Part shown: positions 3-42,227 of the stretch, one piece after another
Layout of the letters: each line of letters begins with the position of its first letter
Numbering within the stretch: position 1 is the first letter of the stretch
Position numbers and translations under genes: made by a program
The notes under the pieces: model-generated
What the model was told of the DNA's origin: nothing
Databases searched by the model: none
Seen by the model: only the letters and a program-made list of their open reading frames with translations
Assembly: GCA_038064915.1 (NCBI GenBank)
Contig: JBBTSB010000002.1
Coordinates: 1-55,700 of the forward strand
Direction of reading: 5' to 3'
Length of the DNA stretch: 55,700 bases
Origin: Patescibacteria group bacterium
Lineage (GTDB): Bacteria; Patescibacteriota; Minisyncoccia; 2-02-FULL-40-12; IGHO2-01-FULL-4-A

Positions 3-338
3 GAACGCGGGAGAAACAATTGGGTCGAACCCTTGCGGAATTGGATTTTAGATACGAAACAAGCCGATTTTTTGTCTCATTCTGACAATCTCTACGAGAT
101 TAAAGCGTTTGTGCAAAAAATCGGAACGAACCCTGTGGTTCGTGACAAGTCCGCCCGCTTCGCCGTACCCTCCCCGTTCGGATTCACGGCCAGCCATCGA
201 GCCCGATTGCATCCGTTCGGATCCGTCACGCGCGCGCCCGATTCGCTTTCGGATTCCGAAGTTTCGATTTGCGGAGAGGGTGGGATTCGAACCCACGACG
301 GGCTTGCGCCCGGACGGTTTTCGAAACCGTTGGAATGA
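3..338 (+). CDS. 3' fragment of a gene entering from the left edge; probable C-terminal tail of a site-specific (serine) recombinase family protein, reading antisense into tRNA-Ser(CGA)
   Basis: Frame is open from nt 3 (ERGRNNWVEPLRNWILDTKQADFL...VQKIGTNP) to TGA at 336-338. The tail resembles tRNA-adjacent CPR recombinases from memory only; the catalytic domain is outside the window. Confidence 0.5.
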   Translation, partial: ERGRNNWVEPLRNWILDTKQADFLSHSDNLYEIKAFVQKIGTNPVVRDKSARFAVPSPFGFTASHRARLHPFGSVTRAPDSLSDSEVSICGEGGIRTHDGLAPGRFSKPLE

Positions 339-357
339 ACCACTATCCGACCTCTCC
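272..357 (-). tRNA. tRNA-Ser(CGA)
   Basis: GGAGAGG/CCTCTCC acceptor stem, anticodon arm ACGGT-TT-CGA-AA-ACCGT, long variable arm, GGTTCGAATCC T-arm, discriminator G; no encoded CCA. Confidence 0.96.
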
Positions 358-366
358 AGTATACCG

Positions 367-438
367 TATCCCCGAGAGGATTTGAACCTCTGACCTCTTC
401 CTTCGGAGGGAAGCGCTCTTCCGCTGAGCTACGAGGAC
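367..438 (-). tRNA. tRNA-Arg(CCG)
   Basis: GTCCTCG...CGGGGAT acceptor, anticodon arm CTTCC-CT-CCG-AA-GGAAG, GGTTCAAATCC T-arm. Confidence 0.94.
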
Positions 439-449
439 CTAGTGCTTGC

Positions 450-473
450 ACTGCGAAGCCTTGGCGAAGCAGT
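450..473 (-). repeat. Short palindromic element (ACTGCTTCGCCAAGGCTTCGCAGT) in the tRNA-Leu/tRNA-Arg spacer
   Basis: ACTGC/GCAGT terminal inverted repeat; core CTTCGCYAARGCTTCG is shared with 45615-45630 inside pyrF. Confidence 0.65.
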
Positions 474-556
474 GCTCGGAGTGGGATTTGAACCCACAAT
501 CCCTTGCGGGAGCGACATTTTAAGTGTCGTGCGTATGCCAGTTCCGCCATCCGAGC
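473..556 (-). tRNA. tRNA-Leu(TAA)
   Basis: GCTCGGA/TCCGAGC acceptor, anticodon arm CGACA-CT-TAA-AA-TGTCG, long variable arm, discriminator A. Confidence 0.95.
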
Positions 557-562
557 ATTTTG

Positions 563-635
563 AGGTGGCAGCGGGAATCGAACCCGCGCAATCGCGGTTT
601 TGCAGACCGCAGCGTTTCCACTTCGCCATGCCACC
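563..635 (-). tRNA. tRNA-Cys(GCA)
   Basis: GGTGGCA/TGCCACC acceptor, anticodon arm GCGGT-CT-GCA-AA-ACCGC, discriminator U. Confidence 0.95.
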
Positions 636-646
636 GACATCTTACT

Positions 647-3442: not shown

Positions 3443-4828
3443 ATGCCAAAGCGTTTTACCATCGTCAACGCCATACCGTACGTCAACGCCAACGCTCACA
3501 TTGGTTTTGCTTTAGAATTGATTTTGTCTGATACTCTAGCGCGATATCATCGCCTGCAGGGTGAAGAAGTGCGATACACCACCGGCACCGATGAAAATTC
3601 CCTCAAAAATGTCCAAGCCGCAGAAAAGGCTGGCAAGCCGGTAGCGGATTTTGTAGCCGAGCATGCGGAGGTATTCAGGAAATTAAATACAACACTCAAT
3701 ATTTCCGCTGATGAGTTTATTCGTACTACCGAAGAGCGCCACATCATCGGCGTTCACAAAATCTGGAAGGCCTGTGATGCTACTGGGGATATTTACAAAA
3801 AGAAATACCAGGGACTCTACTGTGTGGGCTGTGAGGTGTTTTATACACAAAAAGATTTAGTCGATGGCCTCTGCCCGGAACACAAAACTAAACCCGAGCT
3901 TATCGAAGAAGAAAACTATTTTTTCAGACTCTCTAACTATCAAGATTGGTTGTTGCAAATTATTGAATCTGATGAGCTCAAAATCACACCAAGCTCACGC
4001 AAAAGCGAACTGACCGAATTTATAAAATCCGGTCTTGAGGATTTCAGTATCTCCCGGTCGAATGACCGGGCAAAAAATTGGGGAATTACGGTGCCTGGCG
4101 ATGACGAGCAAAAAATTTACGTCTGGTTTGATGCGCTGACAAATTATGTAAATGCAGTAGGGGTTGTGTGGTGGAATGATAGTTATCGCGCACACATGAT
4201 TGGAAAGGGCATTAGCAGGTTTCATGCGATCTACTGGCCCGCGATACTCAAATCCGCCGGACTTGCGACTCCCAACGAAATCTTTATTCACGGCTACGTG
4301 ACGGTAGACGGCGAGAAAATTTCAAAGTCGCTGGGCAATGTCGTGGACCCCTTTGAAGTGGTAGAAAAATATGGCGTTGATGCAGTGCGGTATTTTTTAC
4401 TTCGCGAAATCCCTTCGACAGGGGATGGAGATTTTTCCATTGCCAAACTCGAAGCTCGCTACAACGGCGATCTAGCAAATAACTTGGGAAATCTGGTAAG
4501 CCGCGTGGGAAAACTTTCAGAAAAACTCATATCGAAGGAAATTGATCCGGCCATTACGAAACAACTTGAAACGACCACTACCAAATATCACGAAGCTATC
4601 AAGACCTTTAAACTCCATGAAGCACTAGCGCATCTTTGGGAACTCTATACGTTTGCGAATGTGTACATGAATGAGAAGGCACCGTGGAAAACAGGTGATG
4701 CCCAGGCAGTTGCCAGTATTTCCCATCTTCTCCAGGAAAGCACCGCGCTCCTTGAACCCTTCCTTCCGGAAACCGCCCAAAAGATCCGAAGCAATACTCC
4801 GGGACCTCTCTTTCCCAAACTTCTCTAA
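3443..4828 (+). CDS. metG: Methionyl-tRNA synthetase (short form)
   Basis: AIPYVNANAHIGF (HIGH), TGTDENSLK, CVGCE..CPEH knuckle, IYVWFDALTNY, KISKSLGN (KMSKS); 461 aa. Confidence 0.97.
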   Translation: MPKRFTIVNAIPYVNANAHIGFALELILSDTLARYHRLQGEEVRYTTGTDENSLKNVQAAEKAGKPVADFVAEHAEVFRKLNTTLNISADEFIRTTEERHIIGVHKIWKACDATGDIYKKKYQGLYCVGCEVFYTQKDLVDGLCPEHKTKPELIEEENYFFRLSNYQDWLLQIIESDELKITPSSRKSELTEFIKSGLEDFSISRSNDRAKNWGITVPGDDEQKIYVWFDALTNYVNAVGVVWWNDSYRAHMIGKGISRFHAIYWPAILKSAGLATPNEIFIHGYVTVDGEKISKSLGNVVDPFEVVEKYGVDAVRYFLLREIPSTGDGDFSIAKLEARYNGDLANNLGNLVSRVGKLSEKLISKEIDPAITKQLETTTTKYHEAIKTFKLHEALAHLWELYTFANVYMNEKAPWKTGDAQAVASISHLLQESTALLEPFLPETAQKIRSNTPGPLFPKLL

Positions 4829-7509: not shown

Positions 7510-7818
7510 ATGGAAACAAGACATCTCAAAGCAGCAGTCATATTGACGGGGATTATCTCACTGGTGGCAATCGTGAGCGCTTTTTATACGCAGTGGAGAG
7601 CCGAGCAAACGTTGACGCCAAAGTGCAGTTACCTGGACCCCATCCTCGTTGACTTGCTTGCTTTTTCCGCTGGACTGTTTCTTGTCCTGGAAGGATTGTA
7701 TCGTATCATCGAGCATCAGGAAATCAAAACTACCAAAGATCGACTTTTTTTGGCAATCCGCATAGCATTCGGGTGTGCCATTATCACACTCCACGTGATG
7801 CAATTTATTCATAAATAA
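7510..7818 (+). CDS. Hypothetical small membrane protein (about 3 TM)
   Basis: 102 aa with three hydrophobic stretches. Confidence 0.7.
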   Translation: METRHLKAAVILTGIISLVAIVSAFYTQWRAEQTLTPKCSYLDPILVDLLAFSAGLFLVLEGLYRIIEHQEIKTTKDRLFLAIRIAFGCAIITLHVMQFIHK

Positions 7819-7830
7819 TCGAAGTATCAC

Positions 7831-8088
7831 ATGATTTCAGAAATCTTAGCATATGTAGGGACAGGGCTGGTCATTATTGCATACTTTCCGCAAATTTTTC
7901 ATTTGATTCGTGAAAAGCGCTCTGCCGGTATCAGTCTCAACGCCTATTATCTATGGGGCACGGCGACTATACTTTTTTTGATCCACGCGATAGTGATCAA
8001 CGACTGGCCCTTCATCATCGTTCAATGCGTAGCTCTCGTGCTAGATGCCATTATCATTTTTTACACGATAAAGTACCAAGACGCATAA
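7831..8088 (+). CDS. PQ-loop / SemiSWEET-like small transporter
   Basis: 85 aa, 3 TM, AYFPQIFHLIREKRSAGIS motif. Confidence 0.8.
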   Translation: MISEILAYVGTGLVIIAYFPQIFHLIREKRSAGISLNAYYLWGTATILFLIHAIVINDWPFIIVQCVALVLDAIIIFYTIKYQDA

Positions 8089-8090
8089 CG

Positions 8091-9905
8091 ATGAAAAAGT
8101 ATTCTCCTCAAACAATCGAAAAGAAGTGGCAGAAGAAATGGAAAGCCCAAAAACTCTATGAGACTGCGGATGCGGTTTCGGGGAAAGAAAATTTTTACAA
8201 GCTCGTAGAGTTTCCATATCCGTCAGGGAATTTGCATATGGGACACTGGTACTCATTTGCAGTGCCGGATATTTTTGCAAGGTACAAGCGGATGAAAGGA
8301 TACAATGTGCTTTATCCGATGGGCTTTGACGCGTTTGGATTACCGGCAGAAAATGCGGCGATCAAAAATAACCTCCAGCCAGGCGAGTGGACCAAACAAA
8401 ACATCAAGACCATGACCAAGCAGATGGAGTCAATGGGTGCGATGTTTGATTGGTCGCGGATGGTGAGCACAATTGATCCTGACTATTACCGCTGGACGCA
8501 GTGGATATTCATACAATTTTACAAAGCCGGTCTGGCCTATCGAGCGAAGACGCTCGTGAACTGGTGCCCAAAGGACAAGACCGTCCTTGCCAATGAGCAA
8601 GTCGTGGATGGCAAATGCGAGCGTTGCGGGAGCGACGTGGAGCAGCGCGAGCGTGAACAGTGGATGTATCGTATTACCAAGTACGCCGATGCACTCGTTG
8701 ATGGTCTCGAAAAAGTCGACTGGCCGGAGGTCACTAAAACCGCACAACGAAATTGGGTATGGGACGTAGAGACAGGAGCGCTTCGCCTTCACGATTGGAT
8801 TTTATCGCGACAGCGGTATTGGGGCACGCCCATACCTATGATTATCTGTAAAGATTGCGGATATCATCCGGTGCCGGAAGAAAAATTGCCGGTGAAATTG
8901 CCTAAGTTGGAAAATTATCTACCAGTTGATGATGGATCTTCGCCGCTCGCGCGTGCCGAAAAGTGGGTCAATGCGAAGTGCCCAAATTGCGGCAAGAATG
9001 CAAAGCGCGAGACTGATACAATGGACACCTTTGTGGACTCAAGCTGGTACTACCTCGCGTATGCAACGCGAGGAATTTCCAATTTCCAATTTCCAATTTC
9101 CAACGATGCCTGGAATCCAGTGGATCTCTACACGGGTGGAGCGGAACATAACACGATGCACTTGCTTTACTCGCGGTTTTTCATCAAAGCACTGCATGAT
9201 TTGAAATTGGTAGACTTTGATGAACCGTTCACTATACGCCGCAACCACGGCACTGTGCTGGGGCCTGATGGTGCGAAGATGTCAAAGTCCAAAGGAAATA
9301 TTATCGACCCCGACAAAGAAGTCGCGCAGTTTGGTGCCGATGCAGTGAGAATGTACCTGGCGTTTCTGGGACCCTACGATACGTTCAATGGTCCGTGGAC
9401 ACCACAGGGGATCACGGGGATTTCGCGATTTTTAAACAAAGTTTGGAAATTGGCTCACGAGGAACAACAAGAAACAAATCAACAGAGACTTCACCAGGCG
9501 ATCAAAAAAGTTAGCGAAGACATCGAAGCCCTGCACTTTAACACTGCTATTTCTGAATTAATGAAGCTCTTGAATGAACGAGAAGTGATAGATGAGGCAT
9601 TTCTAAAATTGCTTGCACCATTTGCGCCGCACTTGGCCGAAGAACTTTGGAGTCGAAATCACAGCACGTCTATCCATCTCGAATTATTCCCTGTGTACGA
9701 TCCTCGCATGATCCAAGAATCTATGGTGGATTTTGTGATCCAGGTAAACGGCAAAACCCGGGGAGTCATTCAACTGCCAGTGGATAGTGATGAATCAGCA
9801 GTGCGTAGTGCGGCAGAAAAAGATGACAGGATAAAGCGCCATCTCACCAGTACGGTTAAAAAGGTAATTTTTGTAAAAGGTCGTCTGTGCAACTTTATTC
9901 TCTAA
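8091..9905 (+). CDS. leuS: Leucyl-tRNA synthetase lacking the CP1 editing domain
   Basis: FPYPSGNLHMGH, MGFDAFGLPAENAA, DW.LSRQRYWGTPIP, DTMDTFVDSSWY, YTGGAEH, KMSKSKGN; only 604 aa. Confidence 0.96.
   Translation: MKKYSPQTIEKKWQKKWKAQKLYETADAVSGKENFYKLVEFPYPSGNLHMGHWYSFAVPDIFARYKRMKGYNVLYPMGFDAFGLPAENAAIKNNLQPGEWTKQNIKTMTKQMESMGAMFDWSRMVSTIDPDYYRWTQWIFIQFYKAGLAYRAKTLVNWCPKDKTVLANEQVVDGKCERCGSDVEQREREQWMYRITKYADALVDGLEKVDWPEVTKTAQRNWVWDVETGALRLHDWILSRQRYWGTPIPMIICKDCGYHPVPEEKLPVKLPKLENYLPVDDGSSPLARAEKWVNAKCPNCGKNAKRETDTMDTFVDSSWYYLAYATRGISNFQFPISNDAWNPVDLYTGGAEHNTMHLLYSRFFIKALHDLKLVDFDEPFTIRRNHGTVLGPDGAKMSKSKGNIIDPDKEVAQFGADAVRMYLAFLGPYDTFNGPWTPQGITGISRFLNKVWKLAHEEQQETNQQRLHQAIKKVSEDIEALHFNTAISELMKLLNEREVIDEAFLKLLAPFAPHLAEELWSRNHSTSIHLELFPVYDPRMIQESMVDFVIQVNGKTRGVIQLPVDSDESAVRSAAEKDDRIKRHLTSTVKKVIFVKGRLCNFIL
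9074..9103 (+). repeat. Tandem heptamer (AATTTCC)x4 inside leuS
   Basis: Four perfect copies at 9074-9101, encoding ISNFQFPISN. Confidence 0.9.
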
Positions 9906-9959: not shown

Positions 9960-10505
9960 ATGAGGCTCAAACTGCTTGGACAATTCGAGAAGCTGGTTGA
10001 GCAATATCAGCGGGATATCGTCAATTTTCACTACCGACTGGTGGGGAATAGGCCCGACGCTGAGGATTTGGCGCAGGAAACATTTCTGAAGGTGTACCAC
10101 AAGCTCGATTCGCTCAAGGATCAGGAAAAAGTGAAAAGTTGGATGTATAGCGTCGCACGCAATGTGACGATAGATTTTTTTAGGAGAAACAAGAACAAAA
10201 GCATCCCGCTTGACAATCTTCTCCTGGAAAACTATGCGAGAGCGACCGCCGTAGATTACCGCGACGAAATTTCATCAAAAGAAATTTCTCAAGAATTGCA
10301 AAAAACGGTCGCACAGTTGAGCACGGAGGATCAGACGATCGTGAAACTGCTTTACTACGAAGGATTTTCGTACAGGGAAATCTGCGACCTTCTCCATATC
10401 AACCAAAATACCCTTAAAAGCCGACTTCATCGTGCACGCAAGGTCTTGTTGGCCGCGATCCAGGCAAACGACCTTCTGCGAGAAGTTGCCATTGAATATC
10501 AATAA
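9960..10505 (+). CDS. ECF-type RNA polymerase sigma factor
   Basis: Region 2 DAEDLAQETFLKVY..VKSWMYSVARN; region 4 YYEGFSYREICDLL..TLKSRLHRAR. Start 9960 is preferred over 9936. Confidence 0.92.
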   Translation: MRLKLLGQFEKLVEQYQRDIVNFHYRLVGNRPDAEDLAQETFLKVYHKLDSLKDQEKVKSWMYSVARNVTIDFFRRNKNKSIPLDNLLLENYARATAVDYRDEISSKEISQELQKTVAQLSTEDQTIVKLLYYEGFSYREICDLLHINQNTLKSRLHRARKVLLAAIQANDLLREVAIEYQ

Positions 10506-10863
10506 CGTCGATCAGTTTATTAGAACAAAAGTGGCTCATTTTTCATCACAACCGTATATTATTGAGCCTTCTACCGGCTTTGTCCGTCGCGTGGTAAACC
10601 ATGCTACCATGGTTGAAAAACAGCGTCGCGCGCGCATCAATATTTGGTTTGCTCTCGTTGCTTTGACACCATATGCGTTGCGGGCACTGTGGTCGCTCAT
10701 CAGGAGCGATTTTGTTTCTGTACTAAGCCTTCCTTTTGGAAATACTGTAAGTCAAGCTTATGGCGTTTTCATGTCATCAATCACTGCGTATGCAATGCTC
10801 GGAGCTGGAATTGTGCTTGCAGTTTATATAGTGGGTCTCCCACGATGGCGCAAGGTATGGTAG
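10492..10863 (+). CDS. Membrane protein, candidate anti-sigma factor
   Basis: Overlaps the sigma stop; short soluble N-terminus then 2 TM segments; TTG start inferred. Confidence 0.55.
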   Translation: MNINNVDQFIRTKVAHFSSQPYIIEPSTGFVRRVVNHATMVEKQRRARINIWFALVALTPYALRALWSLIRSDFVSVLSLPFGNTVSQAYGVFMSSITAYAMLGAGIVLAVYIVGLPRWRKVW

Positions 10864-10872
10864 GATAGGTCC

Positions 10873-11253
10873 ATGGCTGAAGGAGAAACGCCGGCAAAGC
10901 TCGAACAGGAAATCGCAAGCATTGAACGTGAACTCGCTGAAAAGCGAGAAGTTTTGCGGCGTGAATCTCTTCACGAAGTGATCAGACAAAAAATCGCTGA
11001 TGCGCCAACCCCTCAACCTCAAGTGCAACCATCTCCTGCCCCTACGCCAGCTTCTGACGGAACTTCGGTTCCTCCACAACTGTTCCACAAAGTGCAGGCA
11101 CTCGTGAATACAGCTTTTCTCAAGTCAATCGATGAAGCCATCAAAGAGGCAAAAGCAACCAACAATGCCGCCCTCATCGACGCGTTTCATGATCTATTAG
11201 TCGACGAACTCTACAACCACCTCATCGAGAGGGGAAAACTAAAGCAAATGTGA
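10873..11253 (+). CDS. Hypothetical protein (coiled coil plus Pro-rich linker)
   Basis: 126 aa; overlaps the next gene's start. Confidence 0.75.
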   Translation: MAEGETPAKLEQEIASIERELAEKREVLRRESLHEVIRQKIADAPTPQPQVQPSPAPTPASDGTSVPPQLFHKVQALVNTAFLKSIDEAIKEAKATNNAALIDAFHDLLVDELYNHLIERGKLKQM

Positions 11254-13706
11254 TGAATCTTTTAGTTCCTATTCTTTTGCTTCTCGTACTCGGAATTCTC
11301 TTTCTTGCCGCGTTTGTTGTCGTCGGGGGAGTGCGGACGAAGGGTCGTTTGCAACGCGCACTCAACATGACGCTCTTTTTGATTCAGGTTCCCAAGGAAC
11401 ACCCCAAGAATCAAGACAGCACCAATCAAAAGCAACTGGAAAAAGAAATGATCGCGATCGGCGAACAGCTTTTGACGAGCTTCAGCAATATCCACGACAA
11501 GGGATGGAACAAGTTCTTATACGGCGAGCCATATCTCGCTCTGGAAATGTCCGTCCACCACATTGGCGAGGAAACGAATCTTTACCTTGCTGTCCCCAAA
11601 AATTCAGCCGACATTATCGAAAAACAAATCCACAGCTACTACCCGACGGCGGATGTCTCGCGTGTTAAAGACTACAACATTTTTAATCCCGAAGGTGCGA
11701 CGGCGGGAGCATCCATTCGTCTGGAAAAATCAAAGGTGTTGCCCATTCGCACCTACCAGACCCTAGAGTCCGACCCCGTCAGTGCGCTATTGACAGCACT
11801 CTCCAAACTCGAGGCGGAGGGTGAAGGTGCGGCGGTACAAATCCTCATACGCCCCACCCATGCACGACGCCTCAAAGACCTCATGACAAGAGTCGCGAGG
11901 CAAATGCAATCCGGCTACGAGTTTGAGGTGGCCCTAAGGCGTGCTAAGCATCCGCCGAGCAAAGAAAAAGAGCGCAAATATGCGGAAAACGAACGCCTGC
12001 CCGAACATACAAAGATCGTCACCCCCACGGAAGATGCCATCATCAAAGCCATCACTTCAAAAATCGGAAAACAGATGTTTGATGTCAACATTCGTTTCCT
12101 CGCATCCGCCCCATCAGAACCTTTGGCCGACCAAATTCTCAAAGAACTGGAAGGATCGCTCGTGCAATTTGCCGGACCGGGACTCAACGGACTTACCATG
12201 AGCCGCCTGACCGGCAACGCCCTGCAAAAACTAATTTATAACTTTTCGTTCCGGCTTTTCAATGAACGGGAAAAAATGATTCTCTCCACCGAGGAGCTCA
12301 ACAGCCTCTACCACTTTCCCACCGCCGCCACGGCCGCACCCAAGGTAAAATTCCTCAAGTCCAAGGCATCTGAACCGCCTGCAGAGCTCCCGCGCGAGGG
12401 TGTGGTGATCGGACTCAACAAGTTCCGCGGTATCGAAAACCAGGTTCGCATATCGCCAAAGGATCGCAGGCGCCACCTGTACATCATAGGACAGACGGGC
12501 ACGGGCAAATCCAGCTTTATGAAACATATGATTGAGCAGGATCTTGCCAACGGCGAGGGGCTGTGTGTTATTGAGCCTCACGGAGATTTTGCCGAACACG
12601 CTCTGTCGGTCATCCCGCAAGAGCGTATCAACGATGTCGTCTACTTCAATCCTTCTGACCTGGAAATGCCGTTTGGTCTCAATATGCTGGAATTTGATCC
12701 TGCTCATCCGGAACAGAAAACACTTCTGATCAACGAACTCTTGAGCATCATCGACAAACTCTACAATTTAAAAGAAACGGGCGGTCCACTCTTCGAAAAA
12801 TATTTCAAAAACGCCTGTTTGCTCCTGATGAACGACTACCAGTACGACCCGACCAATGAGAGCAAGATTCCCGTGTTGGCCGACATCTCGCGAATTCTTG
12901 TGGATACTGATTTTCGCCTCGATAAACTTTCTCGCGAACAGGATCCGCTTGTACGCCAGTTTTGGGAACTGGAGGCTGCAAAGGCGGGAGGAGAGTCAAG
13001 TCTTGCCAACATGGCACCCTACATTTCCAGCAAAATCGACACCTTTGTGTCCAATGACTACCTACGCGTAATCATCAACCAAAAGCGCAGTACGATCAAC
13101 TTCCGGGAAATCATGGACCAGGGAAAGATTTTGATCTTGAGCCTTTCCAAGGGGAGAATCGGTGAGGTCAACGCACAGCTGTTGGGTATGATGGTGGTGG
13201 GCAAATTGCTCATTTCGGCTCTCTCGCGTGTCGATATACCGGAAGATCAGCGGAGAGATTTTTTCCTCTACATTGATGAATTTCAAAACGTGACCACCGA
13301 CAGTATCGCTACTATATTATCGGAAGCAAGAAAATATAGATTGAACCTTACCATCGCGCACCAGTTTATCAAACAGCTCAAGGAACCGATCCGCGATGCG
13401 GTATTTGGCAATGCCGGATCGTTTGTCGTCTTTCGTATCGGTCCCGATGACGCCGAATTTCTCAAAAACTTTTTCGATCCCTATTTTACACCGCAAGACC
13501 TGGTCAACATTGACAACTTCAACGCCTATGTAAAACTACTTATGAACGACAAGACAACTAAACCCTTCAACATCCAGACTATACGGGAAGGGGTTGGGTC
13601 CCCGGAAATGTTTGAGTTCATTCGTGAACATTCGCGAAGCGTGTACGGCCGGCCGCGCGCGCTCGTGGAAGAAGAGATTCGTCGTGGATTTGAAAACGCA
13701 CTATGA
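11250..13706 (+). CDS. VirD4/TraG-like coupling protein / HerA-FtsK family ATPase with N-terminal TM anchor
   Basis: RRRHLYIIGQTGTGKS (Walker A), LYIDEFQN (Walker B), ILSEARKYRL.LTIAHQF..QL. Confidence 0.85.
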   Translation: MMNLLVPILLLLVLGILFLAAFVVVGGVRTKGRLQRALNMTLFLIQVPKEHPKNQDSTNQKQLEKEMIAIGEQLLTSFSNIHDKGWNKFLYGEPYLALEMSVHHIGEETNLYLAVPKNSADIIEKQIHSYYPTADVSRVKDYNIFNPEGATAGASIRLEKSKVLPIRTYQTLESDPVSALLTALSKLEAEGEGAAVQILIRPTHARRLKDLMTRVARQMQSGYEFEVALRRAKHPPSKEKERKYAENERLPEHTKIVTPTEDAIIKAITSKIGKQMFDVNIRFLASAPSEPLADQILKELEGSLVQFAGPGLNGLTMSRLTGNALQKLIYNFSFRLFNEREKMILSTEELNSLYHFPTAATAAPKVKFLKSKASEPPAELPREGVVIGLNKFRGIENQVRISPKDRRRHLYIIGQTGTGKSSFMKHMIEQDLANGEGLCVIEPHGDFAEHALSVIPQERINDVVYFNPSDLEMPFGLNMLEFDPAHPEQKTLLINELLSIIDKLYNLKETGGPLFEKYFKNACLLLMNDYQYDPTNESKIPVLADISRILVDTDFRLDKLSREQDPLVRQFWELEAAKAGGESSLANMAPYISSKIDTFVSNDYLRVIINQKRSTINFREIMDQGKILILSLSKGRIGEVNAQLLGMMVVGKLLISALSRVDIPEDQRRDFFLYIDEFQNVTTDSIATILSEARKYRLNLTIAHQFIKQLKEPIRDAVFGNAGSFVVFRIGPDDAEFLKNFFDPYFTPQDLVNIDNFNAYVKLLMNDKTTKPFNIQTIREGVGSPEMFEFIREHSRSVYGRPRALVEEEIRRGFENAL

Positions 13707-14302
13707 CTGTTGTTTCACGTAAAGATTTTACCAATGCGATCATCACCGGACTCACCGCTGGACTGTTGGCATGGGCGGTGCTCACGTACCTTCAAAAATC
13801 GCTACCGTACGGCTTTGCCGCCGCATGGCTGGTACTGATCATCCCCATTCTCTGGATCGCCGGCGTACAGTTGGGATACATTTTGGGACGATGGTTTGGT
13901 TTTTTTAATCAGTTTGGCAAATATGCGGCCACGGGATTTACCAATTTTGCCGTAGACGCGGGAGTATTGAACCTTTTATTTTCTTTGACGCATATTGCCG
14001 AGGGACCCATCTATTCTCTTGAAAAAGGGGCCTCGTTTTTGGTTGCTGTGACCCACAGCTACTACTGGAACAGACGCTGGGCGTTTCAATCTGATCAATT
14101 GATGACCCGAAAGGAATTCACAAAGTTTATGATCGTAAACATCATCGGCCTCATCATCAACAACAGCGTCGCTTCCGCCATCGTCCACTTCATCCCGCAT
14201 ACCGCGTCACCCGAAGTGTGGGGCAACGTGGGTGCAATCGGCGGTGCCGCAGTAGCCTTGATCTTTAACTTCATCGGATTTAGGATACTCGTATTCAAAT
14301 GA
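13703..14302 (+). CDS. GtrA family membrane protein
   Basis: QFGKYAATGFTNFAVDAGVLNLL, SYYWNRRWAF, EFTKFMIVNIIGLIIN. Confidence 0.85.
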   Translation: MTVVSRKDFTNAIITGLTAGLLAWAVLTYLQKSLPYGFAAAWLVLIIPILWIAGVQLGYILGRWFGFFNQFGKYAATGFTNFAVDAGVLNLLFSLTHIAEGPIYSLEKGASFLVAVTHSYYWNRRWAFQSDQLMTRKEFTKFMIVNIIGLIINNSVASAIVHFIPHTASPEVWGNVGAIGGAAVALIFNFIGFRILVFK

Positions 14303-15306
14303 CACTCTATCGCACGTATCGCCCAAAAACCTTTGGTGAGCTGGAAGGGCAGGAACATGTCGTGCAAACCTTGCAAGGAGCGCTTTCTTCGGGTCGCATC
14401 GGACATGCGTATTTGTTTTGTGGTCCTCGGGGTACGGGGAAAACGACCATGGCTAGACTTTTGGCCAAAGCGCTAAACTGTGAAAAGCGCGATACCGAGC
14501 CTTGCAACAAATGTTTTTCCTGCACCGAAATCAACGCCGGAAAGTCTATGGATTTGATTGAGATCGATGCTGCATCGAATAGGGGAATCGATGAAATCCG
14601 CAATGTAAAAGAGTCGGCTCAAGTCGCCGCCACGTCCTCGAGATTCAAAGTGTTTATCGTGGATGAAGTGCATATGCTCACCACGCCGGCATTCAACGCA
14701 CTTCTGAAAACACTCGAAGAACCACCCTCTCATACGCTCTTCATTCTTGCCACGACCGAACCGCATAAAGTCCCCGAGACGATTCTTTCGCGCGTCCAGC
14801 GGTTTGATTTCAAAAAGCTCAATCATGATCAGATCATCGCCAAACTCCGCACCGTTGCAAAGGCGGAAAACCTCACCATGGACGATGAATCGTTTAGGGC
14901 GATTGCGACTGCCGCTTCCGGTTCACTACGAGATGCGGAATCCGCACTAGCAAAGGTGATTTCCTATACCGGAACCACCATCAATGGCGAGGAAACATCA
15001 AAAATCCTGGGCATCATCCCGCTCAAAGTCCACGAAGAACTGCTGTCACTCATTGCACAAAAACAAACCGCACAAGCGATAGCAAAAATAGCGGACCTCC
15101 ACGAGTCCGGGGTGCATCTGGATCACTTTGCAAAACAGTTTATTGACTATCTCCGAGCGGAACTCCTCGCCCAGCTTCCCAATGCATCCTTGGTTCCCGT
15201 CGTCCAGCGTTTCATGCAAGCCCGCCAGGATTTGCGCCACAGCCCTATTCCTCAACTTCCCCTGGAGCTTGCGATCATTGATCTCACCACCCATGCATCC
15301 CGCTAG
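14299..15306 (+). CDS. dnaX: DNA polymerase III subunit gamma/tau (short, 335 aa)
   Basis: LYRTYRPKTF, GPRGTGKTT, C-rich Zn motif, EIDAASNRGIDEIR, DEVHML, LLKTLEEPP, SRVQRF. Confidence 0.95.
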   Translation: MTLYRTYRPKTFGELEGQEHVVQTLQGALSSGRIGHAYLFCGPRGTGKTTMARLLAKALNCEKRDTEPCNKCFSCTEINAGKSMDLIEIDAASNRGIDEIRNVKESAQVAATSSRFKVFIVDEVHMLTTPAFNALLKTLEEPPSHTLFILATTEPHKVPETILSRVQRFDFKKLNHDQIIAKLRTVAKAENLTMDDESFRAIATAASGSLRDAESALAKVISYTGTTINGEETSKILGIIPLKVHEELLSLIAQKQTAQAIAKIADLHESGVHLDHFAKQFIDYLRAELLAQLPNASLVPVVQRFMQARQDLRHSPIPQLPLELAIIDLTTHASR

Positions 15307-16366
15307 AAGCAACCGTGGCAGACTCGTTTTTTATGCGATTACCATCGCGGCGATCATTATCGTCTTTCTTAAATTTTCGGAGCTTCGCTACATCGGAGAT
15401 TTGTTCCGCAAATCCAACTGGCACTACCTCGGTATCGTGCTGGTAGTCGAGTTTTTTTCCTACCTGGCTCAAGCGCTCAATTTTCAGGCAGTTCTCAAAA
15501 TCAAACAACACCACGTCGGCGTGTGGGAACTGTTTCCCATAAGCTATGTGGTACAGTTCATCAGCCAGGCAATCCCGACCGGGGGGCTATCCGGTCAAGT
15601 GTTTTTTATCTACTATTTGCGAAGATACGGTATCACATTTGCCGAGGGATTTGGCCGAGCCATTTTGGAAGTTGCGTCGCTATATACCGCCTATGCGCTT
15701 TACTTTATCACTGCCGCCATTTTGCTGGTGCGCGCCGATGCGTTCCAAAACGAACCGCGGTTGGTGGTCTTTATCTATGCGGTAGTGATATTTTTCGGCA
15801 TTTGCAGCTTCGTCATTTTTTTGAGCCAAAAACGCAAACGTGATTCGCGCATTCACTGGCTGTTTGATCGCGCCGCACGCTATGTGAAAAAAAGTTCCCT
15901 CATGCAAATGCCCGGGTTGCGCGCCATCAACGATCACAGCGACCACCTGGCCATGATCAAAGACCAGTTTAATGCGACTCTGGGGTGGGAACATTTCAAA
16001 AAAAATATTCGCCTGTTTGCCCTCGCGTCGTTCTGGCAGGTTGTCCACCTGATGACGCATGTGGTGACTCTTTTTGTCATTTCCCACGCGCTTGGTACTC
16101 CCATAGCGTTTTGGATTTGTTTCATTGCGTTTACATTTTCAAAGTTTATTTCCATGATTTCTATCGTTCCCGGTGCCCCCGGAGTTTTTGAGGGTGTTAT
16201 GACGCTAGTGCTTTTGGCATTTGGCGTCGATGCGCACATAGCTCTCGCGGCGACCATTCTTACCCGTGCGTTTACCTTCTGGCTCCCCATGCCAATCGGC
16301 TGGATTCTCTACCATCGCTACATGAGGCAATTTGAAAAGATGAATGACAACCTCGTCGTTTCGTGA
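15293..16366 (+). CDS. Lysylphosphatidylglycerol synthase TM / flippase-like (UPF0104) membrane protein
   Basis: Multi-TM; ISQAIPTGGLSG, VPGAPGVFEG, RAFTFWLP motifs. Confidence 0.82.
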   Translation: MHPARSNRGRLVFYAITIAAIIIVFLKFSELRYIGDLFRKSNWHYLGIVLVVEFFSYLAQALNFQAVLKIKQHHVGVWELFPISYVVQFISQAIPTGGLSGQVFFIYYLRRYGITFAEGFGRAILEVASLYTAYALYFITAAILLVRADAFQNEPRLVVFIYAVVIFFGICSFVIFLSQKRKRDSRIHWLFDRAARYVKKSSLMQMPGLRAINDHSDHLAMIKDQFNATLGWEHFKKNIRLFALASFWQVVHLMTHVVTLFVISHALGTPIAFWICFIAFTFSKFISMISIVPGAPGVFEGVMTLVLLAFGVDAHIALAATILTRAFTFWLPMPIGWILYHRYMRQFEKMNDNLVVS

Positions 16367-19308: not shown

Positions 19309-20934
19309 ATGCCAAAAACAAAATTTATCTTCATAGTCGGAGGTGTCATGTCCGGAATCGGCAAGGGCATCACCACCAGCTCGATCGGCCGTGTCCTCAA
19401 GGACTACGGCTTTTCGGTTACGGCCTGTAAAATTGATCCATACTTCAACGTAGATGCCGGGACGCTCAACCCCATCGTACATGGTGAAGTTTTTGTGACG
19501 GATGACGGAACGGAAGCAGATCAAGATTTAGGAAACTACGAGCGATTCCTGGAACAGGACATGGGGAAAGATAACATCATGACCTCCGGCCTCGTGTACC
19601 GCACGGTCATCGAACGCGAACGCAATCTTGAGTACGGTGGCAAGGATGTGCAAATGATGAGCGATGTACCAGATGAGGTGATCCGCCGCATCAAGCATAC
19701 CGCTGAAAGAACGAAATCAGAGTTTATCATCGTCGAAATCGGTGGCACAGCAGGGGACAACGAAAATCTCGTATTCCTCGAAGCGGCGCGTGTAATGAAG
19801 CTCAACAATCCAAGCGATGTTCTGTTTGTTCTGGTGAGTTACCTTCCGGTCCTTCACAGCGTAGGTGAAATGAAATCTAAACCCACTCAACATGCTGTGC
19901 GCGCACTTAACTCTGTTGGTATTCAGACGGATATCTTGATCGCCCGATCTCGCGTACCCATGGATCAGCCTCGAAAAGAAAAGATTTCGCGCATCTGCAA
20001 CATGCACGCGGATGATATCATTTCTGCTCCTGACGTTGCGTCCATCTACGAAGTACCGCTCAATTTTGAGCGTGATCACATCGGCAAGCGAATTTTGGAA
20101 AAATTAGATTTGAAAGTAAAGAAACACGACAGCAGTCAGTGGCAAAAACTTGTCGATTCCATCGGTAAAGCAAGAAATTCAGTCAAAATTGGCATTGTGG
20201 GAAAGTACTTCGTTAGCGGAGATTTTTCTCTCACCGATGCATACCTCTCCGTGATCGAAGCGATCAAACACGCCTCCTGGGCGCATGGACGCAAGCCCGA
20301 AATTACTTGGATTGATGCGGCCACGTACGAAAGAGATAAGGAAAAGATCAAGGAGCTTTCAGATTATAGCGGCATAATTGTACCGGGAGGGTTTGGGGAG
20401 CGAGGAATTGAAGGCAAAATCCTCGCCGTAGAATACACACGGAAGAACAACATCCCGTACCTTGGACTCTGCTATGGACTTCAGATGGCAGTGATTGAAT
20501 ATGCGCGCAATGTGGTTGGTCTCCAAGGTGCACATACTACCGAGATTGATCCCAAAACTCCGCATCCGGTTGTTCATACCCTGCCGGATCAAATCAAAAA
20601 GATAGCACTCAAACAGATGGGGGGAACGATGCGTCTTGGCGCATATGACTGCAATCTGAAAAAGGGAAGTCTCGCCGAAAAACTCTATGGCACCAAAAAA
20701 ATATCCGAACGCCACCGCCATCGCTATGAAGTCAACAACGAATACAAAGAACAAATAGAGAAGGCTGGTCTCATGATCTCCGGCACCAATCCACAATCCA
20801 ATCTCGCCGAAATCATCGAGCTACCTGGACACAAGTTTTTTATGGGATCGCAATTTCATCCAGAACTGAAAAGCAGACCGTTGCACCCACATCCTCTGTT
20901 TCTAGGTTTTATTGAAGCGGCAATACGATCCTAA
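19309..20934 (+). CDS. pyrG: CTP synthase
   Basis: GGVMSGIGKG, DPYFNVDAGT, HGEVFVTDDG, PGGFG, GLCYGLQ, ERHRHRYE, QFHPE. Confidence 0.97.
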   Translation: MPKTKFIFIVGGVMSGIGKGITTSSIGRVLKDYGFSVTACKIDPYFNVDAGTLNPIVHGEVFVTDDGTEADQDLGNYERFLEQDMGKDNIMTSGLVYRTVIERERNLEYGGKDVQMMSDVPDEVIRRIKHTAERTKSEFIIVEIGGTAGDNENLVFLEAARVMKLNNPSDVLFVLVSYLPVLHSVGEMKSKPTQHAVRALNSVGIQTDILIARSRVPMDQPRKEKISRICNMHADDIISAPDVASIYEVPLNFERDHIGKRILEKLDLKVKKHDSSQWQKLVDSIGKARNSVKIGIVGKYFVSGDFSLTDAYLSVIEAIKHASWAHGRKPEITWIDAATYERDKEKIKELSDYSGIIVPGGFGERGIEGKILAVEYTRKNNIPYLGLCYGLQMAVIEYARNVVGLQGAHTTEIDPKTPHPVVHTLPDQIKKIALKQMGGTMRLGAYDCNLKKGSLAEKLYGTKKISERHRHRYEVNNEYKEQIEKAGLMISGTNPQSNLAEIIELPGHKFFMGSQFHPELKSRPLHPHPLFLGFIEAAIRS

Positions 20935-21016
20935 TTTTCAATTTGCAATTTCCAATTTTCAATCAATTCTTAAATTTAAATATTGAAAATTCACTGAAAA
21001 TTGATAATTGAAAATT
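20933..21016. repeat. Palindromic array of AATTTTC-type heptamers between pyrG and htpX
   Basis: Left arm AATTTTC AATTTGC AATTTCC AATTTTC; right arm GAAAATT x3 plus GATAATT (reverse complement). Confidence 0.8.
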
Positions 21017-33965: not shown

Positions 33966-36900
33966 TCAACCAATAATTTCTTGCCAACTTCGCGGTTGTA
34001 GTTTTTTCAGGTCCACTTCTGCAAGACAACGCATGAGAAGCGCTCCTATGTTTGCGTTGGTGATGAGCGGAATATGATTGTCGATAGCGAGACGACGAAT
34101 AGTTTTTGCATCACCAATGCCATCGCCCGGGGAAGGGACATTGATCACGAGATCTACGCCACTTTCTCTGATAATCTTCTCAATCGTCGGTTCACGCTCA
34201 CCTAAACGGTTCAGGAGAACAGACGAAATACCATGCTGTTTGAGAAAATCGTGCGTGCCCTTAGTAGTGAATAATGTGTAGTGGTTAGTGGATAGTAATC
34301 TAATACTAGAAAGCATTTTTTGTTTTGCTTCATCGGCGATACTCAAGAGAATCCGCTTGCCATCAACAGACTGATCGGTCGAAAGCCACGAGCGATAAAA
34401 AGCCTCGAGTAAATCTCCGCCCAGGCACGCAACTTCCCCAGTAGAAGCCATCTCCACGCCCGCCACCGGATCAGCACCCTTGAGACGTCCATAGGAAAAC
34501 TGAGGGCTTTTTACGCCGACATAGTCCAAATCCAGCGTACGGAAATGTACGTCGTGTTTAATCCCCAGCATCGCTTCGGTTGCAAGCTCAATAAAATTTC
34601 GATTGATCACCTTGGAAACAAACGGGAAGGAGCGCGAAGCACGGACATTGCACTCGATGACCTTGATTTCGTTATCCTTGGCGATGAATTGAATATTAAA
34701 TGGACCGGTAATCTTGAGAGTGGCGGCGATTTTTTTTGCTACACGCTTAGCTCGACGGACCGTTTCGAGGTAAAGCCGCTGCGGAGGAAGTACTACGGTG
34801 GCGTCGCCCGAATGCACGCCAGCGTTTTCGATATGCTCGGAAATCGCAAATATCACCATCTCTCCTTTGTGTGCGACTGCGTCAATTTCAAACTCTTTTG
34901 CCCCAGTGATAAATTTTGAAATCACCACCGGATGATCAGGGGAAAGCTGGGTTGCGGCAGTGAGATATTCTTTGAGCTGACGCTCATCGGTAACCACATT
35001 CATGGCGCCACCGGAGAGCACATAGGAAGGGCGGATTAGGACGGGATACCCGAAATGTTTAGCAAATGCTTTGGCTTTGGCAAGGGTCGTGACTTGAGTC
35101 CAGGCGGGTTGATCGATACCGAGGTCACCAAGCATCGCAGAAAATTTGTTGCGATCCTCGGCCCGGTCGATGTCTTTGGCGGAAGTACCAAGAAGTGCAT
35201 AGCCACTAGTACTTAATGGCAGAGCAAGATTGTTTGCAATTTGTCCGCCCACCGAGACTACGATAGAGGGATCGTTTTCAAAATCGGCAATATCACGAAC
35301 ACGCTCAAGCGTGAGCTCTTCAAAATACAATCGATCTGATATGTCAAAATCGGTTGAGACAGTTTCGGGATTGGAGTTTACGACGATCGTTTTCTTGCCA
35401 TGCTTGCGAAGCGTTTTGACCGTATTCACTGCTGACCAATCAAATTCCACTGACGAGCCAATACAGTACGACCCGGAACCAAGCACAATCATGGGCTTCT
35501 TGAGGGGTTCTACATCGTGCTCGGTTCCATGATAGGTCGTGTAGAGATAATTTGTCTCCGAATCAAACTCTCCGGCAAGTGTGTCAATTTGTTTCACGAT
35601 CGGCACAATGCCTTGCTTGATTCGCCGCTGGCGAATTTTCTCTTCTGTCGTTCGTAGCTTTTTTGCTATGTCTCTATCAGAAAAGCCAAGTTGTTTTGCT
35701 TCGCGAAGATTATCTTTTTTGATTTTAAACGTTGCAATTGTCTTGATATGCTCCAAAAACCACGGCGTGATTTGGGAAAGTTGATGGGCTTTTTTGACCG
35801 TCATGCCTTGGCGAAATGCTTCTAACAAGGCAAACAATCTTCTATCAGTAGGGTGTTTGATTTCGTCGAGGTAATTCAGTCCGCCGGAGGCGGATCCTCC
35901 TCCGGAGGACATCCGTATGGCTTTCTGCAGAGCTTCTGGGAACGATCTCCCCAGAGCCATGACTTCGCCCACACTTTTCATTTCAGAACCAATATGGTGA
36001 TCACTGGATTTCATCTTCTGCAAATCCCATCGCGGAATCTTTACTGCCAGGTAATCCAGTGCCGGCTCAAAAAAAGCAGATGTGCTTTTGGTCACCGCAT
36101 TCTTGAGTTCGTGAAGGCGATAGCCAAGCGCGAGCTTTGCGGCGACATAGGCAAGAGGATAGCCGGTGGCCTTTGAGGCCAGGGCACTGGAGCGGGAAAG
36201 ACGCGCATTCACCTCGATCACTCTATAATCTCCCGAGGTAGGATGGAGCGCATATTGAATATTGCACTCACCGACAATGCCAAGATGATTGATGGTTTTT
36301 ATCGCGATTTCGCGGAGCATGTGGTACTCGTGATTGTTGAGCGTCTGGCTCGGGGCAACCACTATACTTTCTCCCGTGTGAATGCCCATCGGATCGAGGT
36401 TTTCCATGTTGCATACCGTGATCGTATTTCCATCGCGATCGCGGACAACTTCGTATTCAATTTCCTTCCAGCCCGTAAGGTACTCTTCAATGAGCATTTG
36501 CTTTTCTAACACACGACTCTTAAGCTCCGCTTCGCTATTTATTCGTCCGGATCCAAGGCCTCCCAAAGAGTATCCCGATCGAATCATTACCGGATAGCCA
36601 ATTTCTCTTGCGGCCGCCACAGCTTCTGTCATTGAGTATACGGCAATACTGCGTGGCGTTTTGACAGAGATTTTTCCCAGTTCCTTTTTAAAAAGATCGC
36701 GATCTTCGGTGATTTTTATTGTTTTGACGGGTGTACCAAGGATTCGTACTCCCTCCAGTTGTAGTCCCAAATTCAATGCAGTCTGCCCACCAAAACTCAC
36801 CAGTACTCCATCCGGTTTTTCGCGCTTGATAATCTTCTGTACGATATCCAACTGCAGAGGCTGGAAATACACTTTGTCAGCCATATCTCCATCTGTTTGG

Positions 36901-37049
36901 ACGGTGGCAATATTGGGATTGATAAGTACAGTTTGAATGCCTTCTTCTTTAAGCGCTTTGATCGCCTGTGAACCGGAATAATCAAACTCCCCGGCCTGTC
37001 CGATGCGTAACCCCCCGGAACCTAATATAAGTACTTTTGAAAGTTTCAA
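33966..37049 (-). CDS. carB: Carbamoyl-phosphate synthase large subunit
   Basis: [69 protein letters not shown]; TTG start. Confidence 0.97.
   Translation of the reverse strand: [1027 protein letters not shown]
35880..35909. repeat. Double mini-hairpin TCCGCC-GGA-GGCGGA / TCCTCC-TCC-GGAGGA in frame in carB ([10 protein letters not shown])
   Basis: Two adjacent perfect 6-bp inverted repeats. Confidence 0.7.
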
Positions 37050-37072
37050 GTTTAAGAGTTTAAAAGTTTAAG
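37041..37072. repeat. 7-8 nt tandem repeat (core AGTTT) x4 at the carA/carB junction
   Basis: AAGTTTC AAGTTTA AGAGTTTA AAAGTTTA AG spans the carA stop and carB start. Confidence 0.7.
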
Positions 37073-38032
37073 GAAATGATCAAATAGCCATCTTGTGTCT
37101 GTCGGGCCTGGGTGGGATTCGGGATGGAACTGAACCGAGAAGAATGGCTTTGTTTTGTGAGCAACACCCTCTACAGAACTATCATTGAGATTTCTAAAAT
37201 TCACGTACCAGTCACTGGGAAGTGTTTTCTCATCTACCGCATATCCATGATTCTGCGATGTGATAAAACATTTTCCATCATCCATTTGAACAGGTTGGTT
37301 ATGCCCGCGATGGCCGAATTTCAACTTGTACGTCTTCGCCTCTGCTGCAAGACCCATAATCTGGCTTCCCAAACAAATGCCCATCACTGGGATATTTTTC
37401 TTGAAAACCTTCTTTAATATTGCAATGGTCTCTGTGTAATCCGCAGGATCGCCAGGACCGTTTGAAAGAAACACGCCCGCAAAATCTTCTTGAGAGTAGT
37501 CATAATCTCTCGGCACGCGCTTAATCTGAAACGGCAATTTCATCAACTCGCGCAAAATATTCATCTTCATCCCGCAGTCTACTAAGATAATTGTTTTTTT
37601 AAATTGCGTATTATATGAAATAGGCTTTGGAATAGAAACAAAAGGAATATCTCCCGAACTTCCTTTTACTAACATAGTTCCTTTGGACCGGAGGTATTTT
37701 GTCAGCGCTCTCGTGTCGACTCCGGTCATGAGTGGTACGTTTTGATCTTGAAGCCACTTCGCAAACGATTCACTCGCTGTGCTGGTCACAACTCCAGTTG
37801 CATGAATTTTCGTGGACTCCCAAGTTTCTTTTGGCGAAACACCGTAATTACCGATCAGCGGATAGGTAAACACCAAAATCTGCCCGGAGTAACTTGGATC
37901 CGTGAGCGACTCCACATATCCCGTCATGCCTGTGCTAAAGACAACTTCACCAAAAAAAATGCCCCTATTGGGGCGAGGAGTCTCTCCTTGAAATCTAGTT
38001 CCATCTTCGAGAATGAGGTTGGATGTATGCAA
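37052..38032 (-). CDS. carA: Carbamoyl-phosphate synthase small subunit
   Basis: LILEDG, GEVVFSTGMTGYVESLTDPSY, SNGPGDP, GICLGSQ, TSQNHGYAV, QFHPESHPGP; TTG start inferred. Confidence 0.95.
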   Translation of the reverse strand: MHTSNLILEDGTRFQGETPRPNRGIFFGEVVFSTGMTGYVESLTDPSYSGQILVFTYPLIGNYGVSPKETWESTKIHATGVVTSTASESFAKWLQDQNVPLMTGVDTRALTKYLRSKGTMLVKGSSGDIPFVSIPKPISYNTQFKKTIILVDCGMKMNILRELMKLPFQIKRVPRDYDYSQEDFAGVFLSNGPGDPADYTETIAILKKVFKKNIPVMGICLGSQIMGLAAEAKTYKLKFGHRGHNQPVQMDDGKCFITSQNHGYAVDEKTLPSDWYVNFRNLNDSSVEGVAHKTKPFFSVQFHPESHPGPTDTRWLFDHFLKLLNS

Positions 38033-38124
38033 ACTTACAGAAGGATACCAAATTGCTATCCGCAAGGCAAGCAAGTCTTGCGAAGAAAGAAGCAGGTGAG
38101 GTATGGTATTGGTGGAGGTGCCAC

Positions 38125-38511: not shown

Positions 38512-38561
38512 CATGTACCTACCCGACAACGGCCGCTCTCCGTGAAAACGGATGGAGCACA

Positions 38562-38595
38562 GACGACCCGCCTAGAGGTCGTCGTTGCATTTTTA
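38562..38595 (+). terminator. Hairpin GACGACC/GGTCGTC plus T-rich tail
   Basis: 7-bp perfect stem followed by GTTGCATTTTT. Confidence 0.5.
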
Positions 38596-38613: not shown

Positions 38614-38620
38614 TTCGATA

Positions 38621-42226: not shown

Positions 42227-42227
42227 T

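Follow-up and report, generated by a model that had tools for sequence, protein, structure and literature searches.

A leucyl-tRNA synthetase gene without its CP1 editing domain in an uncultured groundwater patescibacterium

The leucyl-tRNA synthetase (LeuRS) of Mycoplasma mobile is the textbook natural case of the loss of a whole editing domain, and the notion that parasites have a "statistical proteome" builds on it. Degeneration of editing sites in host-restricted organisms with small genomes was reportedly described by Li et al. in 2011 and by Melnikov et al. in 2018. The M. mobile enzyme (MmLeuRS) carries neither the editing domain CP1, where it has a nonapeptide (227-KEEIDGKIT-235), nor the leucine-specific domain (LSD), where it has a tetrapeptide (398-GKDG-401; PMC3643597). 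Put in the place of CP1 in Escherichia coli LeuRS, the nonapeptide still allows aminoacylation, and the E. coli LSD can be replaced by GKDG, not by AAAA (PMC3643597). According to reviews, Mycoplasma LeuRS is editing-defective with mistranslation of Leu codons, and editing sites are often degenerate in small-genome, host-restricted organisms (PMC7373986, PMC10057733). Here we describe a leuS gene of the same reduced design at positions 8091 to 9905 of a 55.7-kb stretch of DNA from a Patescibacteria group bacterium (contig JBBTSB010000002.1, positions 1 to 55,700, forward strand; this whole stretch is called the window below). It is an independent second natural example of the loss of the whole CP1 domain, convergent with MmLeuRS. 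With high probability the gene encodes a working housekeeping LeuRS that is reduced to its catalytic core and would charge tRNA-Leu without editing in cis, the domain having gone under relaxed selection for editing and independently of Mycoplasma.

Comparison with sequences of the Protein Data Bank (PDB) by phmmer divides the 604-residue protein into three blocks. Residues 1–227 align with residues 1–228 of Thermus thermophilus LeuRS, residues 231–391 with 417–579, and residues 394–603 with 635–875. Unmatched are residues ~229–416 of the T. thermophilus enzyme, corresponding to CP1 with ~188 residues, and residues ~580–634, corresponding to the LSD with ~55 residues. The alignment with E. coli LeuRS exhibits the same two gaps, so that CP1 and LSD of both reference enzymes are without a counterpart in the query; identity to both amounts to 50–56% within the aligned blocks. 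The Pfam model of the LeuRS CP1 domain (PF13603), precomputed for nearly all relatives, was not matched in the query. A hidden Markov model (HMM) of CP1 built from 70 relatives gave only noise in the query, in comparison to 113–200 bits in CP1-bearing relatives. The deletion of the entire CP1 domain, claimed earlier in a reading of the DNA without database searches (the sequence-only reading), is thereby borne out. The positions given there for QRNW (residues 219–222, 8745–8756) and LRLHDW (from residue 231, 8781) are exact, and the connector between W222 and R232 consists of the nine residues VWDVETGAL. The gene and its parts are as follows.

8091..9905, + strand: leuS coding sequence, 604 amino acids plus stop (uninterrupted translation, TIGR00396, AlphaFold2 model)
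8235..8246, + strand: HMGH, the class I HIGH motif, residues 49–52 (HMGH at the aligned place in the T. thermophilus and E. coli enzymes)
8757..8783, + strand: VWDVETGAL connector, residues 223–231, in the place of CP1 (alignments, contigs of four runs)
8847..8990, + strand: second zinc-binding module with C253, C256, C297 and C300 (aligns to T. thermophilus LeuRS 439–487)
9261..9272, + strand: GPDG tetrapeptide, residues 391–394, in the place of the LSD (alignment, analogy with GKDG of MmLeuRS)
9276..9290, + strand: KMSKS catalytic loop, residues 396–400 (80-sequence alignment)
9381..9902, + strand: anticodon-binding helical domain and C-terminal tRNA-binding domain (Pfam Anticodon_1, alignment with T. 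thermophilus LeuRS 635–875)

What remains of the enzyme is well preserved. TIGR00396, the NCBIfam model of bacterial leucine-tRNA ligase (leuS_bact), matches with 708.6 bits, above its cutoff (548.4 bits), and due to the missing CP1 the match falls in two stretches. Pfam recognizes tRNA-synt_1, tRNA-synt_1g and Anticodon_1. Within an alignment of 80 sequences H49, G51 and H52 of the HMGH motif are invariant, as are M397, S398, K399 and S400 of the KMSKS loop, K396 being nearly so; the zinc ligands C253, C256 and C297 are likewise invariant among 80 relatives and C300 is nearly so. The bacterial-type C-terminal tRNA-binding domain is kept to its very end (residues 394–603 versus 635–875 in T. 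thermophilus) with predicted local distance difference test (pLDDT) values of 81–97 in this block. The LeuRS core is intact: HMGH and KMSKS stand in their Rossmann fold, and neither of the two zinc modules nor the anticodon-binding or the C-terminal domain is lost. The start codon, ATG at 8091, lies 2 nt past the stop codon of an upstream PQ-loop gene. A longer frame of 650 amino acids that opens at 7953 was dismissed as the gene, since the homologs begin with MKKY.

The sequence-only reading had also found no LSD in front of KMSKS. This holds for the present protein, in which T. thermophilus residues 580–634 have no match, but it is not peculiar to it and is common to the near homologs. For a survey of domain states the 120 nearest proteins were listed, and anchors defined by regular expressions were found in ~105 of them. 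The spacing from EPF to KMSKS is 15 residues in the query and 14–15 residues in every one of these ~105 listed proteins. The absence of the LSD is therefore old and clade-wide.

An AlphaFold2 model computed from the 80-sequence alignment shows a mean pLDDT of 90.9 and a predicted template modelling score (pTM) of 0.85, with a pLDDT of 81 in the block of the connector. All top matches of this model in a Foldseek search of the PDB are LeuRS, and only 3ZIU, the structure of MmLeuRS, fits across both full lengths. Its chain A gives template modelling (TM) scores of 0.85 for the query (TMq) and 0.82 for the target (TMt), and chain B gives 0.83 and 0.87 with a root-mean-square deviation of 2.7 Å, whereas structures of CP1-bearing LeuRS attain a TMt of only 0.57–0.65. 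In a search with a short query, 3ZIU was matched through the junction as one stretch (query 3–52 versus chain 215–267). The choice of MmLeuRS as the precedent was thus right: the architecture is the same, and no other solved structure matches both full lengths. The likeness is nevertheless convergent. Because the query is nearer to T. thermophilus LeuRS than to MmLeuRS, and because its nearest relatives are CP1-bearing LeuRS of Patescibacteria, the sequences argue for a deletion that arose within Patescibacteria, independently of Mycoplasma. Among the listed matches these nearest homologs share 72–80% identity with the query and are labelled Patescibacteria, Parcubacteria or Yanofskybacteria.

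The distance between AQRNW and RLHDW reflects the state of CP1 in the listed proteins, which are named by our handles where they have to be told apart.

9 aa: query, P0003 and P0004; CP1 absent
14 aa: P0025; CP1 absent
110–115 aa: P0007 and P0009; mini-CP1
140–221 aa: most of the 120 nearest listed proteins; ordinary CP1
294–357 aa: several proteins; extra domain in CP1 (alpha/beta-hydrolase, Ser-hydrolase or NUDIX)

Mapped in this way, as had been proposed together with the deletion, CP1 loss is patchy and confined to few lineages among the 120 nearest listed proteins. Rather than a general trait of Patescibacteria, it is a patchy event that appears to be recent and restricted to a narrow clade. 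A neighbour-joining tree of the LeuRS core places the query in a clade of nine sequences with 100% bootstrap support. Two further forms of CP1 found in relatives of the query are located as follows.

L091, 4922–7324: P0005, full-length, fast-evolving CP1, from the sample of the query
L085, 6843–8864: P0007, mini-CP1

The CP1 domain of P0005 is only 31–39% identical to that of relatives whose core is 73–79% identical. The resulting ratio of 0.41–0.54 lies below the 5th percentile of the background (0.64). Of its threonine-rich motif, FTTRxDT in relatives, only the decayed form FDSVPQT is left, and the editing site is probably inactive. In P0007, P0009 and P0002 the CP1 HMM positions ~1–38 and 83–146 of 190 are kept, whereas positions 39–82 and the C-terminal third are gone; the mini-CP1 of ~110 residues retains the TTRPDT and GTGAIMGVPAYDERD motifs. 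Due to the fast divergence and motif decay in P0005 and the existence of mini-CP1 forms, the constraint on CP1 appears relaxed across the whole clade.

Foreign domains were observed in or beside CP1 of P0002 (L084, 10001–12679), P0006 (L089, 7413–10289), P0008, P0057, P0067, P0068, P0072, P0078, P0083 and P0108. They belong to Abhydrolase_6, Ser_hydrolase (PF06821), NUDIX (PF00293), or PF04480 with PF18741, and the proteins comprise 890–980 aa; cluster representatives reach 1000–1340 aa. Such domains might serve as new accessories for editing or deacylation.

How often CP1 was lost can be narrowed down to some extent. The LeuRS-core tree pairs the query with P0002 (44–58%) and P0004 with P0006 (79%). 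Trees of the flanking genes conflict with it and group the query with P0003 and P0007 (79–86%), and seven lineages are nearly equidistant in the trees. No gap is needed to align the DNA of the three 9-residue junctions, and they share the signature [DT]G[SA]L-RLHDW, in which Leu stands versus Tyr in nearly all CP1-bearing relatives. Owing to the equal length, the gapless DNA alignment and this signature, a single deletion event for the query, P0003 and P0004 is favoured. In P0025 the connector has 14 residues and keeps IGRSE...TY, and its loss looks independent. We put the number of losses at one to three in the clade, with at least one more beyond it.

These observations may be drawn together into a wider picture, which we put forward tentatively and to which we give slightly less than an even chance. 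One patescibacterial clade of genus or family level would have been caught while dismantling LeuRS proofreading, with CP1 conserved and a foreign hydrolase fused to it, fast-evolving or decayed, shrunk to ~110 residues, or replaced by a 9-residue connector, and with excision perhaps more than once. If this is true, post-transfer editing by LeuRS would be dispensable in non-parasitic environmental ultra-small bacteria, and CP1-bearing and CP1-less species in the same groundwater samples would constitute a natural experiment on the cost of losing proofreading.

The position of the gene in the genome was compared among the relatives. Around the query leuS the order is infB-rbfA (divergent), metG, TerC, tatD, small open reading frames (ORFs), leuS, a sigma factor of the extracytoplasmic function (ECF) type, a small ORF, a DUF87 ATPase, gtrA, holB and a gene similar to lysylphosphatidylglycerol (LPG) synthase. 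The conserved neighbours lie at these positions.

3443..4828, + strand: metG, minimal methionyl-tRNA synthetase (MetRS) of 461 aa, same neighbour beside leuS of the relatives
9960..16366, + strand: downstream cluster of ECF-type sigma factor, small ORF, DUF87/DUF8128 ATPase (817 aa), GtrA, holB-like clamp-loader subunit and LPG-synthase-like membrane protein, in the same order beside leuS of P0002–P0007

The same order surrounds the CP1-less genes of P0003 and P0004, the mini-CP1 gene of P0007 and the genes with full or enlarged CP1 of P0002, P0005 and P0006. The query leuS is therefore the positional ortholog of the CP1-bearing leuS in sister genomes. The three CP1-less genes differ from each other at proportions of 0.17–0.20 of non-synonymous (pN) and 0.72–0.77 of synonymous sites (pS, saturated), and the ratio of substitution rates (dN/dS) is ~0.1 where computable. 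With so few non-synonymous differences while synonymous sites are saturated, the CP1-less leuS genes are kept under purifying selection. The MetRS encoded nearby consists of a catalytic core and a short anticodon-binding domain without C-terminal appendage.

Downstream of the junction the gene contains a short tandem repeat.

9074..9103, + strand: perfect tandem repeat (AATTTCC)x4.3 within leuS, encodes ISNFQFPISN and replaces a loop conserved in the clade

An inverted repeat with a stem of 6 bp (CTCGCG-TATGCAA-CGCGAG) precedes the array, the whole region covering 9053–9103. As the unit of seven bases is not a multiple of three, a slip in copy number would shift the frame of an essential gene. 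A related, imperfect array, (AATTTTC)x4.4, lies at 20933–20963 between the genes of CTP synthase and an M48 peptidase and is followed by more A/T-rich repeats of 7 or 14 bp as far as 21023. Logan unitigs break at the heptamer repeat in leuS, where unrelated repeat-bearing contigs pile up to a word depth of ~2500.

That break, located within leuS at 9074–9097 amid the pile-up of many unrelated contigs, is the one observation in favour of an assembly collapse or a decaying pseudogene, i.e. of CP1 being present in the real molecule or of a gene without function. Such an origin has a vanishingly small probability. Words of the gene are contained in 8 public runs, and 3 runs from groundwater metagenomes contain all of them. 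In each of these 3 runs a contig of 1656 bases spans 7600–9097 with 0 differences and 0 gaps, and in a fourth run from a different study a contig of 206 bases spans 8662–8867 with 0 differences. The CP1 junction (8745–8800) thus lies well within single error-free contigs; no insertion or deletion at the junction is reported in the contigs of these four runs from two studies. Independent assemblies hold the identical protein, on at least four contigs of up to 163 kb. With these contigs crossing the junction and CP1 not present in them, assembly collapse is excluded at this site. Depth is equal on either side of the repeat (14.5/15.2, 12.3/11.4 and 8.2/7.2). Decay of the gene is opposed by the unbroken frame of 604 codons, by the same 9-residue junction in two other species at 77% identity, and by the strong purifying selection. 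Apparent read joints (8756->9072 and others) were disregarded; their shorter side has 21–30 bases, and they were read as partial matches of other sequences. A different objection grants the gene its function and regards it as an auxiliary or specialised LeuRS paralog, for example an inhibitor-resistant or non-translational one, with a canonical CP1-bearing leuS elsewhere in the genome. Precedents for duplicate LeuRS are AgnB2 of A. radiobacter K84 (PMC5059758, 5ah5) and LeuRS1/2 of N. magadii (PMC4005665), and some other CP1-less LeuRS-like clusters from metagenomes (P0225, P0209) have HIGH/KMSKS motifs that are degenerate or lie in phage-like surroundings. The query gene, however, stands exactly where sister genomes have their CP1-bearing leuS, and its catalytic motifs are intact. 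The CP1-bearing homolog P0005 comes from the same sample, but its contig is a different one on which the flanking genes are present a second time; it therefore belongs to another organism. A full-length leuS elsewhere had been named as a ground for doubt; the CP1-bearing relatives proved to be orthologs in other genomes and not a second copy. The group has small genomes, in which it is unusual for a synthetase to be duplicated. A paralog is hence very improbable.

The housekeeping LeuRS without CP1 remains the preferred explanation, and its working can be outlined by analogy. Similar to MmLeuRS, whose two linkers were found in experiments to support aminoacylation, the enzyme would activate leucine and charge tRNA-Leu; the presumed substrate is encoded in the window.

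472..556, - strand: tRNA-Leu(UAA) with long variable arm and discriminator A73 (ARAGORN, Rfam, fold)

As the hydrolytic site of CP1 is absent, there would be no post-transfer editing in cis, and fidelity would rest on discrimination by the synthetic site and on any pre-transfer hydrolysis. Apart from the junction, no residues were found that distinguish the CP1-less from the CP1-bearing relatives, those of the synthetic site included, and for this reason the sequences give no support for a re-engineered, more selective synthetic site. Selection for editing by CP1 may instead have been relaxed in a lineage with a small genome. Norvaline is said to be the physiological editing target of LeuRS (Cvetesic et al. 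2014). It arises as a by-product of the leucine pathway and is misrecognised by the E. coli enzyme at ~10^-2 (PMC4932531). The most likely reason for relaxed selection is that this main target would be scarce without leucine biosynthesis, a pathway generally lacking in such organisms. In that case additional errors at Leu codons would seldom occur, or the cell would tolerate them.

Alternatively, mischarged tRNA-Leu might be cleared in trans by a free-standing deacylase encoded elsewhere, either CP1-like, of the AlaX/YbaK/ProX type or another hydrolase. Trans-editing factors are known for other synthetases (PMC11415595), and the unrelated hydrolase and NUDIX domains fused into CP1 of clade relatives hint at unusual chemistry at this site. 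In the six frames of the window, though, no CP1-like sequence was detected at E <= 10, while the positive controls gave 113–200 bits, and none of the 30 larger ORFs scanned in the window is an AlaX, YbaK or DTD-type gene; the only other synthetase there is the minimal MetRS. To our knowledge, no free-standing CP1 acting on tRNA-Leu has been described. Compensation in trans is thus unlikely, if somewhat less so than a paralog. Several points weigh against the housekeeping LeuRS without editing as well. R323, the same in all 79 other aligned sequences, is Ala in the query and lies in the loop altered by the repeat. The lack of leucine biosynthesis (leuABCD) is presumed here from what is generally known of Patescibacteria. 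For this enzyme, charging of tRNA-Leu, the absence of editing and mistranslation are predicted from its sequence. The genome was covered over the 55.7 kb of the window, and a second leuS or a trans-acting deacylase could lie elsewhere. Finally, the only changes reported as damaging in MmLeuRS are those of Gly to Pro, and position 2 of its tetrapeptide, which is Pro in the GPDG of the query, was tested only as Ala (PMC3643597).

Proteins of comparable design were also found beyond the clade. Among the 150 best representatives of clusters at 50% identity, eight are short LeuRS whose match is not interrupted; P0256 has 706 aa and the other seven have 611–650 aa. These LeuRS-like proteins without CP1 and LSD (P0158, P0162, P0209, P0225, P0233, P0247, P0252 and P0256) show 43–50% identity, fall into separate 50% clusters and have diverse junctions. 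CP1-less LeuRS-like proteins therefore recur in metagenomes. The HIGH motif is degenerate in P0225 and P0162, and KMSKS is replaced by KFSKR in P0225 and by AMSKS in P0252. Some members of the clusters are labelled Nanoarchaeota or Bacillota. P0209 (L093, 6001–7854) adjoins a Clp protease, a split Pol III alpha and a homing endonuclease of the intein type, a context that may be phage or mobile.

Other parts of the window are also of interest. Patescibacteria are generally described as biosynthetically poor, and against this background a near-complete set for de novo pyrimidine synthesis at 33966–46326 is notable. Its genes and that of CTP synthase are listed here.

33966–37049, - strand: carB
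37052–38152, - strand: carA
38585–39547: aspartate/ornithine carbamoyltransferase
39548–40573: amidohydrolase (dihydroorotase-like)
40545–41597: dihydroorotate (DHO) dehydrogenase
41594–42226: phosphoribosyltransferase
45523–46326: orotidine monophosphate (OMP) decarboxylase
19309–20934: CTP synthase

The ORF at 43866–44705, between NUDIX and pyrimidine genes, encodes a BRO-N domain; this family is frequent on phage or mobile DNA. The tRNA-Leu gene belongs to a cluster of four tRNAs at 271–635 on the - strand (Ser-CGA, Arg-CCG, Leu-UAA and Cys-GCA), and an ORF at 92–640 (- strand) that overlaps this cluster is probably spurious.

The gene described here adds a second independent origin of CP1 loss, located in an environmental, uncultured phylum. 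A search for literature on editing or loss of proofreading in LeuRS of Patescibacteria or the Candidate Phyla Radiation (CPR) found nothing relevant; an earlier mention is possible, the primary survey being outside that search. The recurrence of the same linker solutions, nine residues and G-x-D-G, argues that the core architecture dictates how CP1 can go. The cost and the cause of the loss become testable through orthologs at 73–80% core identity, some of them in the same samples, in which CP1 is intact, decayed, reduced to a mini form or absent. The CP1-less enzymes are also without the site that is bound by editing-site-directed LeuRS inhibitors.

In comparison with MmLeuRS, the query is likewise a minimal LeuRS of the bacterial type with ~600–640 aa and without CP1 and LSD. 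Both enzymes have a nonapeptide in the place of CP1 (KEEIDGKIT in M. mobile, VWDVETGAL in the query) and G-x-D-G in the place of the LSD (GKDG and GPDG, respectively). Residues 4–604 of the query align without interruption to residues 9–637 of MmLeuRS, and the reciprocal structural TM scores are 0.82–0.87. The difference lies in descent, which is independent: identity to MmLeuRS is 38–39% with 454 bits, versus 545 bits for the query to T. thermophilus LeuRS. Unlike in M. mobile, the loss of the LSD in the query lineage is old and clade-wide and that of CP1 patchy and apparently recent. The hosts differ as well, as the query enzyme, known from sequence alone, belongs to an uncultured ultra-small groundwater bacterium, whereas M. 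mobile is a vertebrate parasite. With the LeuRS of E. coli and T. thermophilus the query shares the catalytic core, HMGH, KMSKS, the zinc modules and the anticodon-binding and C-terminal domains. Those enzymes possess a CP1 of ~188 aa, which harbours the post-transfer editing site and is the target of benzoxaboroles (e.g. 4ARI, 3ZJT), and an LSD of ~55 aa; the query has neither. Similar to the degenerate editing sites of Mycoplasma and microsporidia, proofreading would have been lost together with a reduced genome and a presumably dependent lifestyle. There, however, the editing sites are mutated, whereas in the query the whole domain is excised, and unlike in those cases intact, degenerate, shrunken and absent CP1 coexist within one narrow clade of Patescibacteria.

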